Assembly (NCBI GenBank): GCA_964467155.1
Contig: CAYXNZ010000003.1
Span: 1 to 51,649, forward strand
Direction of reading: 5' to 3'
Length of the DNA stretch: 51,649 bases
Source of the DNA: an uncultured Gammaproteobacteria bacterium
GTDB lineage: Bacteria > Patescibacteriota > Patescibacteriia > Patescibacteriales > GWC2-42-12
A model generated the notes under the pieces. That model worked only from the letters and a program-made list of their open reading frames with translations, made no database searches and was not told where the DNA came from. This document shows positions 10,790 through 51,619 of the stretch, in pieces. The position numbers and the translations under genes were made by a program. Each line of letters opens with the position of its first letter. Within the stretch, counting starts at the first letter, position 1.

Positions 10790-11323
10790 ATGTTATATTC
10801 AAAAATACAATTATTAGAAAAAATTCAATTTAAGCCAATGGCAAATTTTCTTACTTTGTCGAGTGTGGCTGTTTTTTTACCTTTTGTAATTCATATTCAA
10901 TGGATAACTGGGCCGATAGTAAATATGATTTTAATTGTGACGCTTTTTCTCGTTGGTTTAAGAAGTGCTTTAGTTTTGTGTCTAATACCTAGCTTGATGG
11001 CTTTGTCTGGTGGATTGTTACCAGCAGTTTTGGCGCCAGTCGTGCCTTTTATTATGATTAGTAATGTAATTTTGGTTTTATCAATTGATTGGTTTTATAA
11101 TAATTCAAAAAGTCAGTTTAATGGTTATCTCGGAGGTGTGATTATTGGGGCTAGTCTAAAATTTATCTTTCTTTTTTTAAGTATAGATTTTATTAGTCGT
11201 TTACTAATTAACCAAGGATTAGTTGCTAAGGTAGCACAAATGATGAGCTGGCCACAATTTGCTACGGCGATTACCGGTGGTTTATTGGCTTGGATGATAT
11301 TAAAATGGCTAAAAAGAGTGTAA
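10790..11323 (+). CDS. ECF-type S-component-like membrane protein
   Basis: About 6 TM helices, QWITGPIVN, P...MISN and terminal WPQFATAITGG; 1 nt after the previous stop. Confidence 0.55.
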   Translation: MLYSKIQLLEKIQFKPMANFLTLSSVAVFLPFVIHIQWITGPIVNMILIVTLFLVGLRSALVLCLIPSLMALSGGLLPAVLAPVVPFIMISNVILVLSIDWFYNNSKSQFNGYLGGVIIGASLKFIFLFLSIDFISRLLINQGLVAKVAQMMSWPQFATAITGGLLAWMILKWLKRV

Positions 11324-11356
11324 AATAAAATTGTAGTTTTTTAATGAAAAATATTT

Positions 11357-11746
11357 ATGCTTAATGCAATAATTAAAATTTTTAAGCACAGAGCGTCTGG
11401 TTTAAAAACTAATAAAAATTTAGTTTATACCGCCATATCTAAGCATTGTTTTTATTTCCGAATGCATATTTCAAAATTTGTTTTAGAACAGCAAAAAGTT
11501 CCATTAAATCCTTTCATGTCTTTCGAATATTTTTTATTAGATACTGTTGATAGGGATTTAATCAGAGAAGCAAATAATAATTTAGTTATGAAATCAGATG
11601 AACTATGGGTGTTTGGACCAATTTCCGATGGAGTTATAGCAGAAATTAAAATAGCCAAGGATGCAAAAAAAATAATTAAATATTTTAAAATAAAAGAATC
11701 AAGGGAAATAGTTGAAATAAAAGAAAATGAAGTAGTAATAGAGTAA
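11357..11746 (+). CDS. Hypothetical protein, nucleoside 2-deoxyribosyltransferase-like (DUF4406-like) fold; start uncertain
   Basis: PLNPF...SDELWVFGPISDGVIAEI pattern. Confidence 0.45.
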   Translation: MLNAIIKIFKHRASGLKTNKNLVYTAISKHCFYFRMHISKFVLEQQKVPLNPFMSFEYFLLDTVDRDLIREANNNLVMKSDELWVFGPISDGVIAEIKIAKDAKKIIKYFKIKESREIVEIKENEVVIE

Positions 11747-11865
11747 TAATCAAAAATTTTAAAACTAAAAAAATATATCAGAATAAAGATGTTTTAGATT
11801 CAATCTGTTTATAAATTGTTAACAATTTTAGGTGTTAAACGGTAATTTCTGTGGACAGCTTCGTA

Positions 11866-11894
11866 TTGACAATTGTTAAAAAATAGCATACAAT
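11866..11894 (+). promoter_or_regulatory. Near-consensus sigma70 promoter TTGACA-N17-TACAAT
   Basis: TTGACA 11866-11871, 17-nt spacer, TACAAT 11889-11894. Confidence 0.75.
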
Positions 11895-11899
11895 AGTCT

Positions 11900-12080
11900 G
11901 CCCAGACGGATGGGATGAATGGAGGATCATTAGTCATCTTCTGGAATGTTTTTATCAAATTGAACATGACTGGTAGTACGGCTTTGAAATTGAGAATATT
12001 TTTATCTTTCAATTTTATGGCCTGTATTCTCTAATGGTATGCGAGTCCAGAAGAATGACTAATGTCTTTCGACAATTTCA
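11900..12080 (+). ncRNA. Candidate 6S-like RNA (rod with central bubble)
   Basis: Closing stem 11921-11945/12046-12070; inner stems 11977-11983/12019-12026 and 11986-11998/12003-12016; promoter directly upstream; about 180 nt. Ends approximate. Confidence 0.55.
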
Positions 12081-12152
12081 TTTTTGACTTTTAGCTTGAA
12101 AAGTTATATAGTTTTATTAAGAACGACTAATTATTTTAGTCTTTTTTATTAT

Positions 12153-13658
12153 ATGAAAATATCCGAAGAAGCAATCAAAGTTTTGCGATTGTTAGAAAAA
12201 AATAAGTTTGAAGCTTATGTCGTGGGTGGTTGCGTGCGTGATTTGTTATTGGGTAACGAACCAAAAGATTGGGATATAACGACTAATGCTCGACCAGAGC
12301 AAATGCTAAAAATATTCCCTGAGGCAAAATATGAAAATGTTTTTGGCACAGTTATTTTGCCGATTAAAAATAAAGACGGCCAAACCGAACAAGTTTTAGA
12401 AATTACTACTTATCGGAGCGAACAAGGTTATAGCGATCGTCGACATCCAGACGAAATAAAATTCGAAGATGAACTAGATAAAGATTTAGAAAGACGTGAT
12501 TTTACAATCAATGCTATGGCTTTAAGACCCCTCCATAGTCCTCCCCTTGTAAAGGAGAGGAAAAACAAAGCTCCCCTCCTTGGTAAGGAGGGGCTGGGGG
12601 AGGTAGAAATTGTTGATTTTTTTGGTGGACAAAAAGATTTGAAGAAAAAAATTATTCGTTCAGTTGGTGAACCAGCCGATAGATTCAAAGAAGACGCTCT
12701 GCGAATGATGCGGGCCATCAGATTTTCTTGTCAACTAAATTTTGTCATTGAGGACAAAACAAAACGAGCGATAACAAAATTGGCTGGTAGTTTGAAGTTT
12801 GTTTCTCAAGAAAGAATCCGTGATGAATTAATTAAAATATTGGATTCAAATAAAGCCTACGAGGGAATAATGCTTTTGTATGAATTAAAGTTATTACAGT
12901 ATATTTTACCAGAAGTAGAGAGGGGAGTTGGTGTAGACCAAAATCGTCATCATACTTATACGGTTTTTAAACATTTAGTTTTATCTTTAAGGTATTGCCC
13001 GAGTAAAAATTGGCGAGTTAAATTGGCTTCGTTGCTTCACGACGTAGCTAAACCACAAACAAAAAAGTTTATCAAAGGTGACGCGACTTTTTATAATCAT
13101 GATGTTGTTGGGGCTAAAATTAGCCAAAAAATAATGAAGAGATTAAGATTTTCTAATGATGATATTGAACAAGTTACAACTTTGGTCCGTAATCACATGT
13201 TTTATTATAATGTTGATGAAGTAACAGAGTCGTCAGTCAGGCGTTTGATTCGTAAGGTTGGTGTGAAAAATTTAAAACATTTAATTGATTTACGAATTGC
13301 TGACCGACTGGGGTCTGGCGTGCCAAAGGCCAAACCATATAAACTTCGCCATTTAGAATATATAATGGAAAAAGTGCAGAACGATCCAGTGTCAGTAAAA
13401 ATGTTGAAAATAAATGGTGATGACTTAATTAAATTATTAAAGATTGAACCAAGTCCCAAAATTGGAACTATTTTGGATGTTTTATTGTCAGAAGTTATAG
13501 AAGACCCAGAGTTAAATGATAAAAAAATTCTAGAAAAAAGGAGTGTAGAGTTAAATAAGCTAGAATTAAAAGAATTACGAGAGCAAGCCAAAGAAAAAAT
13601 TGAGGATAAAAAAACTGACGATGACATGGAATTAAAAAAAGAGTTTTGGGTAAAATAG
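12153..13658 (+). CDS. cca: CCA-adding tRNA nucleotidyltransferase with HD domain (start moved to ATG 12153)
   Basis: YVVGGCVRDLLLG, DWDITT, RRDFTINAMA, EDALRMMRAIRF, SQERIRDEL, LLHDVAKP. Confidence 0.92.
   Translation: MKISEEAIKVLRLLEKNKFEAYVVGGCVRDLLLGNEPKDWDITTNARPEQMLKIFPEAKYENVFGTVILPIKNKDGQTEQVLEITTYRSEQGYSDRRHPDEIKFEDELDKDLERRDFTINAMALRPLHSPPLVKERKNKAPLLGKEGLGEVEIVDFFGGQKDLKKKIIRSVGEPADRFKEDALRMMRAIRFSCQLNFVIEDKTKRAITKLAGSLKFVSQERIRDELIKILDSNKAYEGIMLLYELKLLQYILPEVERGVGVDQNRHHTYTVFKHLVLSLRYCPSKNWRVKLASLLHDVAKPQTKKFIKGDATFYNHDVVGAKISQKIMKRLRFSNDDIEQVTTLVRNHMFYYNVDEVTESSVRRLIRKVGVKNLKHLIDLRIADRLGSGVPKAKPYKLRHLEYIMEKVQNDPVSVKMLKINGDDLIKLLKIEPSPKIGTILDVLLSEVIEDPELNDKKILEKRSVELNKLELKELREQAKEKIEDKKTDDDMELKKEFWVK
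12527..12604. repeat. In-frame inverted pair of REP-like palindromes inside cca
   Basis: CCTCCCCTTGTAAAGGAGAGG (12540-12560) and CCCCTCCTT-GGT-AAGGAGGGG (12573-12593) with GC-rich tails, directly after RRDFTINAMAL. Confidence 0.75.
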
Positions 13659-51212: not shown

Positions 51213-51619
51213 TAATATCAAGGTAAGCGGACGATTACCCCGCCGAATCGGCGGGGAGGAAAGTCCGGACTCCTGCCACGCTTTTTGTGTGGTGTCATGG
51301 CAGTGGGTAACGCCCACCAAGAGTAATTTTAGGGAAAGTGCCACAGAGACAATACTAGTCCCGAGTTCTCGGGATGAAAGGTGAAAAGTTATACAGTGTT
51401 TATGTTGCGAATGGATATCCACGCAACTTAGGCTACGTATATTTTACGCTGGTGACAGCGATAGATGGTAAACCCTGCCTGGAGCAAGAGCAAACCTTTG
51501 AGTAACCAAAGATGAAAAGTGGCTCGCTTGATCCCGAGAGCAATTTCGGGACTAGATAGATAATCGTCATTCCAAGCAATTGGAATACAAAATCCGGCTT
51601 ATAACTTGCCTTGATATTA
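51213..51619 (+). ncRNA. rnpB: RNase P RNA
   Basis: GAGGAAAGTCCGGAC, GGAAAGTGCCACAGA, GGTAAACCC..CTGGAGCAAG, ACAAAATCCGGCTTAT; P1 helix 51213-51227/51605-51619. Ends approximate. Confidence 0.95.

Follow-up and report, generated by a model that had tools for sequence, protein, structure and literature searches.

A promoter-driven rod RNA with an acceptor-like terminus upstream of cca in Falkowbacteria-like Patescibacteria

Positions 11921–12074 on the plus strand of a 51,649-nt stretch of DNA (hereafter the window), from a 1.08-Mb genome of the Candidatus Falkowbacteria type (Patescibacteria, or candidate phyla radiation, CPR), are an independently promoted non-coding RNA gene lying directly upstream of cca, the gene for a CCA-adding enzyme. 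The predicted mature RNA, 154 nt long, folds into a rod and very probably belongs, judging from its sequence and surroundings, to a family of rod RNAs upstream of cca in related genomes. This family is uncatalogued (no match in Rfam 15), fast-evolving, patchily distributed, tied to cca in Falkowbacteria-like Patescibacteria and restricted to their order. The best explanation at present, to which we assign a probability of roughly 0.4, is that the rod is matured in the manner of tRNA or 4.5S RNA and would act in trans, by way of a tRNA-like end, with the enzymes that handle tRNA 3' ends.

The genomes of CPR bacteria are tiny, and to our knowledge hardly any of their non-coding RNAs has been characterised. 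The locus adds a well-delimited small-RNA family that is backed by covariation, whose constant partner gene makes tRNA 3' ends and whose constant structural module resembles a tRNA 3' end. If the link is functional, it would provide a new way to regulate or buffer tRNA-end maintenance in a setting where about 80% of tRNA genes have no encoded CCA. New here are the acceptor-like R-CCA end (R, purine), the pair of genus-1 orthologs and a census of the family, with the tRNA-like terminus as a testable lead; the locus is also a warning that promoter-driven rods in CPR genomes are not all "6S-like". RNA positions are given below in window coordinates on the plus strand. G000 denotes the window genome and G001 a sister species of the same genus, L numbers denote individual cca loci, and C numbers denote G000 contigs.

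Promoter and fold of the RNA gene

The gene is preceded by a sigma-70-type promoter, TTGACA-N17-TACAAT (11866–11894), which matches the consensus at 11 of 12 positions, is kept in G001 and is the top promoter-like site within 11300–12600. The first-pass annotation of this DNA had named the same promoter, followed by a rod-like fold with no credible open reading frame (ORF), and each of these points was borne out. Transcription is predicted to start at about 11900–11902. The sole ORF in the RNA region (39 aa, 11915–12034) has no Pfam match, and its start codon is missing from the G001 ortholog; a small-protein reading was rejected on this lack of conservation.

Folding of 11896–12085 gave a minimum free energy (MFE) of −63.8 kcal/mol (z = −5.74), and none of 200 dinucleotide shuffles folded equally well. 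The fold was assigned to the plus-strand transcript because the minus strand folds more poorly (−42 kcal/mol, z = −3.35) and because 13 of the 71 pairs in the plus-strand structure are G-U. The closing stem of 24 bp, anticipated at about that length, is interrupted by two single-nucleotide bulges in the MFE structure (11920–11926/12065–12071, 11928–11937/12055–12064 and 11938–11944/12047–12053). Its 5' strand (11921–11944, GGAGGAUCAUUAGUCAUCUUCUGG) is purine-rich and begins with G, and its 3' strand (12047–12070, CCAGAAGAAUGACUAAUGUCUUUC) is pyrimidine-rich towards its end.

The distal part of the rod is an apical domain (11976–12027) with a 4-nt loop. Its two stems lie where they had been placed, at MFE lengths of 8 bp and 14 bp (pairs 11976–11983/12019–12027 and 11985–11998/12003–12017), and its sequence is weakly conserved in G001. 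The central bubble described earlier stood in part: the centre is indeed loosely structured, but it does not form an open two-sided bubble. The MFE structure has instead a small 6-bp hairpin on the 5' side (11946–11967, pairs 11946–11951/11962–11967), which does not occur in G001, and an unpaired 12-nt stretch on the 3' side (12028–12039, UCUCUAAUGGUA), which is the 3' half of the supposed bubble and is not kept in G001.

The predicted mature RNA, delimited by the fold and by the R1 and nhmmer matches given below, comprises the rod and a terminal GACA (12071–12074). This tail occupies the position of the unpaired R-CCA of the relatives, in which a discriminator-like purine is followed by CCA. 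Upstream of the rod is a 5' leader of about 20 nt (11900–11920), of which 11908–11916 is weakly paired with the trailer at 12075–12083 (four G-U in 9 bp). The trailer is U-rich (AUUUCAUUU) and would be a weak terminator at best; no separate intrinsic terminator was found after the window rod, unlike in every other member examined.

Ortholog and family upstream of cca

After the cca locus had been collected from every genome of the Genome Taxonomy Database (GTDB) family, an ortholog of the window RNA was found in G001 (L214:1220–1370), at the same site upstream of a cca that is 85% identical to that of G000. When the G001 RNA was used as an nhmmer query against all loci, the window RNA was the only non-self match (E = 0.012). 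The G001 copy has the promoter TTGACA-N17-TATAAT, a closing helix formed by GGAGGAAUAUUAGUCUUCUUUUGG and CCAAGAGAAAGACUAAUAUCUUCC, and the tail GCCA, followed by a trailer and a canonical terminator. Its fold (z = −4.81) is an almost continuous rod with a biggest internal loop of 2 × 4 nt. All 23 pairs compared in the closing helix are standard in both species, with three compensatory changes (C-G to U-A, A-U to U-A and C-G to U-A) and two one-sided changes; slid-register controls gave 44–54% pairing. Between the two species, identity is about 80% in the closing strands and in the promoter and 56% in the RNA interior, where the alignment has many gaps.

The survey covered 160 cca loci drawn from genomes and metagenomes, 80 of them genome-derived. 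BLAST of the window RNA in 60 relatives returned chance matches of 28–38 nt only, and blastn and nhmmer searches with it gave no match in the 80 genome-derived loci, nor in all 160. Homologs were recovered by position, with the covariance model R1 and through the family-wide collection of cca loci. Promoter-driven rods directly upstream of cca and on the same strand were found in 11 further, Falkowbacteria-like loci, which fall into group A (L014, L017, L024, L103, L114 and L196), group B (L018, L068, L128 and L026) and L036, a rod that stands apart from both groups. With G001 and the window copy this makes the 13 members compared, all rod-shaped and 150–260 nt long.

The group A consensus fold has five helices with 94% of cells paired, against 44–52% in slid controls, and 7 of its pairs have changed on both sides, compared with 3.4 ± 1.4 in shuffles. 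R1 was built from group A alone, without genus-1 sequences. It matched the window RNA end to end at 11916–12080 (13.5 bits, E = 0.006), as the best match in the 601-nt slot, and the G001 RNA end to end (17.2 bits, E = 9e-4), again as the best match in its slot; both scores are weak, being significant within the targeted slot and not genome-wide. A further R1 match in the window, at 765–903 on the minus strand, lies within a coding region and was dismissed as chance. The covarying structure found in G001 and in group A, together with the relatives upstream of cca in other genera, supports one of the two identities originally put forward, that of a new CPR non-coding RNA class.

MAFFT alignments over all subgroups (A2, A4 and A7) support the terminal 7-bp helix only, and for this reason no family-wide model was built. 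Profiles built from sequence alone, whether of the family 5' end or 3' end, of the halves or of the full length, did not place the window RNA among their top genome-wide matches. Those top matches were themselves chance: the one on C29 is a tRNA-Ser 3' fragment, the one on C28 lies within mraY, and the one on C35 has no matching 3' strand. Screens for rods by local folding, run on the loci and on intergenic gaps of the genome, were uninformative, as coding regions, rRNA and GC-rich palindromes made up most of their output. Because the R1 scores are not significant genome-wide and the sequence profiles fail, family membership of the window RNA rests on position, architecture, the targeted R1 matches and the bridge through G001.

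The window and its relatives share a neighbourhood consisting of a TM1266-like gene, p177 (a 177-aa membrane protein), the slot and cca. The gene upstream of the RNA differs among members (GT2, NUDIX, lectin or HydA; DUF7768 in the window), and cca is the constant neighbour, adjacent to the RNA in all of them. In the other members examined, including G001, a canonical intrinsic terminator follows 30–90 nt past the rod, and a near-consensus cca promoter comes after it. Of the 22 genomes of the GTDB family that could be assessed, 8 carry the RNA upstream of cca and one more has a degenerate copy; in one genus, 5 of 10 genomes carry it. No searched genome had a second copy, and an R1 search of the genomes without a slot copy found none elsewhere. 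Rfam searches of the cca loci of ten relatives (E ≤ 1) and of the G001 locus (E ≤ 10) matched no family.

The slot upstream of cca is often occupied in relatives by GC-rich palindromes resembling repetitive extragenic palindromic (REP) elements, of the ACCCCGUUAAAU...AUUUAACGGGGU type, or by small membrane-protein ORFs, which replace or accompany the rod RNA. Palindromes or ORFs of this kind were located at L014:2304–2502, L005:2142–2440, L028:2334–2420 and, in L236 (genome G024), in the last 105 nt or so before cca.

The acceptor-like terminus and competing explanations

Three features are conserved across subgroups whose interiors cannot be aligned: the adjacency to cca, the start of the helix and the tail. 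In 12 of 13 members the closing helix begins 6–13 nt past the −10 box of a promoter that is near-consensus or of the extended −10 type, which puts its start on the predicted transcription start or a few nucleotides from it, the sole exception being the window copy, in which the gap from the −10 box to G+1 is 26 nt. The first base of the helix is always G and the base before it always U or C, and the helix has a purine-rich 5' strand and a pyrimidine-rich 3' strand across the family. The four nucleotides after the helix read GCCA in nine members, among them G001, and ACCA, GGCC(A), GCUA and, in the window, GACA in the remaining four; at a genomic G+C content of about 35%, the chance of CCA at a fixed position is about 1%. 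Taken together, this amounts to the layout of a tRNA acceptor end, in which G1 pairs with position 72 and a purine discriminator precedes CCA.

These features are consistent with a maturation pathway of the tRNA or 4.5S RNA kind. Bacterial RNase P cuts hairpins as well as the precursors of 4.5S RNA and transfer-messenger RNA (tmRNA), and docks on R-CCA (PMC12710915); CCA-adding enzymes take non-tRNA RNAs provided with a purine discriminator and an end resembling an acceptor stem (PMC4477674). In the proposed pathway, RNase P would trim the short 5' leader from the primary transcript between U and G+1, and the 3' trailer would be removed back to the R-CCA end. With the terminator lying 30–90 nt downstream in the relatives, trimming would be needed before R-CCA became the 3' end, just as it is for tRNA genes. 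In G000, where the gene reads GACA, the RNA would be cut after the discriminator-like G and CCA rebuilt by the neighbouring CCA-adding enzyme. The resulting stable rod would then work in trans, offering its tRNA-like end as ligand, decoy or buffer to the enzymes acting on tRNA 3' ends, with the co-located CCA-adding enzyme as the prime candidate partner; it would not be an open-promoter mimic for RNA polymerase. Just 9 of the 45 ARAGORN-predicted tRNA genes of G000 have an encoded CCA, which makes CCA addition a major activity in this genome and the neighbouring enzyme busy and essential. The tmRNA gene, on C10, also has no encoded CCA.

It is conceivable, if doubtful, that the rods form a new class of tRNA-end mimics, in which the acceptor-like terminus (a G1-C72-type helix, a purine discriminator and CCA) is the only constrained module. 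The tRNA maturation machinery would produce and maintain such RNAs, which might be a dedicated substrate, decoy or regulator of the adjacent CCA-adding enzyme or of other tRNA 3'-end enzymes or toxins. The group A 5' strand, GGAGAGU, has the same sequence as the acceptor strand of G000 tRNA-Ser(GGA), a likeness that also favours a tRNA-like end, and a group A rod could even be a serylated, non-ribosomal aminoacyl carrier. Mimicry of tRNA-Ser in general was rejected, as the corresponding GGAGGAU of the window is no nearer to tRNA-Ser than to tRNA-Gly or tRNA-Val.

Among known RNAs, the phage T4 species 1 and 2 RNAs (rnaC/rnaD) are stable, hairpin-like molecules of about 140 nt whose genes sit among those for tRNAs and whose maturation depends on the tRNA-processing machinery; they differ from the rods upstream of cca in being phage-encoded and in their unrelated sequence. 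The 4.5S RNA precursor of the signal recognition particle (SRP) as well as other hairpin substrates of RNase P share with the rods a long hairpin whose G-initial closing helix follows a short leader and is in turn followed by an unpaired purine-CC(A) (PMC12710915). This is the minimal layout recognised by RNase P, and cleavage of the rod RNA is predicted by analogy. The window RNA differs from 4.5S RNA in having no domain IV, and its genome in having neither Ffh nor FtsY and in an RNase P RNA that reads AAGU, not GGGU, as detailed below. The tRNA-like domain of tmRNA and the YrlA-type Y RNAs are likewise non-tRNA RNAs with a tRNA-like module open to tRNA-processing enzymes (PMC4201824), but the rod upstream of cca has the acceptor end only, with no T-arm, D-arm or elbow and no ARAGORN or Rfam match.

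Several observations weigh against maturation and action by way of a tRNA-like end. ARAGORN predicted no tRNA or tmRNA gene in 11700–12300, where no Rfam tRNA or tmRNA model matched either, and the RNA has neither the T-arm nor the elbow that CCA-adding enzymes and RNase P normally use as a ruler. The RNase P RNA of G000 (class A, window 51219–51617, 198 bits) has AAGU in the loop that docks R-CCA, where E. coli and the consensus have GGGU, and docking in G000 is on this account at best partial; AAGU fits a genome in which most tRNA genes have no encoded CCA. The likeness to tRNA-Ser is confined to group A and is not shared by group B or by genus 1. The least typical of the members is the window copy, with GACA in place of R-CCA, a leader of some 20 nt and no terminator of its own, and its membership has to contend with the weak R1 scores and the failed sequence profiles described above. 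The patchy presence of the RNA (8–9 of 22 family genomes, 5 of 10 in one genus) means that it is dispensable, and its linkage to cca could be historical and not functional.

The rod might alternatively be a cis-acting part of cca expression, serving as a long structured 5' leader, a processing site or an insulator within a transcript begun at the 11866 promoter and continuing into cca. It is always co-oriented with cca and directly upstream of it, and in the window no real terminator separates the two, only AUUUCAUUUUU, so read-through into cca is likely there. The terminators and separate cca promoters of the other members, G001 included, speak against such a role, as do the cca promoter that the window itself possesses (12084–12112) and the many relatives that express cca with an empty slot, and we regard it as unlikely. 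A neutral or selfish structured insertion, for instance a decayed palindromic element or the remnant of a tRNA-Ser gene, transcribed without function in a variable hot spot, is improbable to a similar degree. The p177–cca slot is indeed variable in relatives, holding GC-rich REP-like palindromes, small ORFs or nothing; the genome is rich in palindromic elements; and the rod is a long imperfect inverted repeat with a patchy distribution and a fast-evolving interior. An insertion without function does not, however, account for a near-consensus promoter that is conserved and correctly placed in all members, for pairing that persists, on the transcribed strand only, by way of G-U intermediates and compensatory changes, or for an unpaired R-CCA kept across subgroups with unalignable interiors. 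The element is moreover single-copy in every genome searched, and a miniature inverted-repeat transposable element was rejected on the same ground.

The other identity originally put forward, a divergent 6S RNA, failed every test run, whether of models, bubble, flanking motifs or distribution. A functional analogue of 6S RNA would bind the RNA polymerase holoenzyme as an open-promoter mimic, be freed by the synthesis of product RNA (pRNA), and have diverged past the Rfam models. The rods do resemble 6S RNA (SsrS; RF00013, 6S-Flavo and related models) in being about 150–200 nt long, rod-shaped, non-coding and single-copy, with a strong promoter of their own; the window RNA has the size (150–200 nt), shape, promoter and lack of coding capacity expected of a 6S-like RNA, and its centre is loosely structured. 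The 6S slot of the genome also looks empty. A search of the whole G000 genome with RF00013 gave no match, and the model works in the phylum: of 301 Patescibacteria genomes, 28 each yielded a single 6S RNA, and the window's class is not represented among these. At the locus, Rfam 15 found no family at gathering score, and with permissive filters no 6S-type model matched 11700–12200 at E ≤ 10; neither did any such model match the loci of the relatives. A two-sided internal loop of at least 8 nt per side is present in the MFE structures of 0 of 13 members, the near-continuous G001 rod being a case in point. The window RNA and its relatives lack the GGGAG...CACCCACCUGG elements found on either side of the bubble in the Rfam-detected 6S RNAs of Patescibacteria. 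In contrast to 6S RNA, the rods are conserved at their ends and not at their centre, carry an R-CCA tail and are patchily distributed, being present in only 8–9 of 22 family genomes, with no copy found elsewhere by R1 in genomes lacking the slot copy. The window RNA is thus not a recognisable 6S RNA, nothing specific supports a 6S-like function, and an unrecognised functional analogue appears quite improbable.

The chance that the rod is a highly divergent SRP (4.5S) RNA is close to nil. In its favour, the rod shares with the 4.5S precursor a long hairpin and an RNase P-type end, and no SRP RNA is detectable in G000 or in 40 relatives. It has no domain IV (a GNAR tetraloop with flanking loops), its apical loops are unconserved, it is missing from most family genomes, and no Ffh or FtsY gene that could supply a binder is detectable in G000 or its relatives. 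An SRP RNA is effectively refuted by the missing domain IV and Ffh and by the lack of an RF00169 or RF01854 match. A hammerhead or other ribozyme, a riboswitch and a Y RNA were rejected because no corresponding Rfam family matched.

Neighbouring features and genome-wide observations

Upstream of the promoter, a 74-nt block (11792–11865) is 79% identical to its G001 counterpart; its conservation equals that of the promoter and exceeds that of the RNA interior. It is possibly an UP element, a regulator binding site or the 3' end of the upstream gene. Downstream of the trailer, the cca promoter TTGACT-N17-TATAGT (12084–12112) has an equivalent upstream of cca in relatives, and cca itself (12153–13658, plus strand) encodes a CCA-adding enzyme with an HD domain (Pfam PolyA_pol, PolyA_pol_RNAbd, tRNA_NucTran2_2 and HD). 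The cca 5' untranslated region (UTR) contains, directly before the start codon, a small hairpin followed by a U-run (12125–12147, GACUAA-uuauu-UUAGUC UUUUUU). An equivalent hairpin is present in the cca 5' UTR of L014, L017, L024 and L214 (AAGGCG-uaaauu-GCCUU AAAUUUUUG). The hairpin may serve cca as an attenuator or a leader element.

The SRP system was surveyed more widely. Neither a small nor a large SRP RNA was found in G000, and a small SRP RNA was found in 0 of 41 genomes of the order. Searches for an SRP54-type GTPase (Ffh/FtsY; PF00448, TIGR00959) were negative in G000 and the relatives and positive in 14 of 14 control genomes, and the G1-G3-G4 motif set did not occur in the six reading frames of G000 and the relatives searched. 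Masking cannot hide the SRP genes of G000, as the assembly has only 1,210 N. The whole SRP system thus looks absent from G000 and from its relatives G001–G040. Across the phylum SRP54 was detected in 1 of 201 genomes, with at most 15 candidates scored per genome; SRP genes figure in papers on TM7x, and the phylum-wide count may be partly a tool artefact.

The tRNA-Ser fragment on C29 (C29:2500–2556) consists of a degenerate T-arm and GAUUACUCUCCGCCAAG, stands isolated at the end of an ORF and may be the remnant of an old attachment site. The assembly contains twelve 100-nt runs of N. The run on C3 directly follows the RNase P RNA gene, and those on C1, C10, C19, C24, C37 and C40 adjoin tRNA or tmRNA genes; C6, C7, C21 and C27 were left out of this comparison. 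The pattern suggests that repeats or structured cassettes at these sites broke the assembly.

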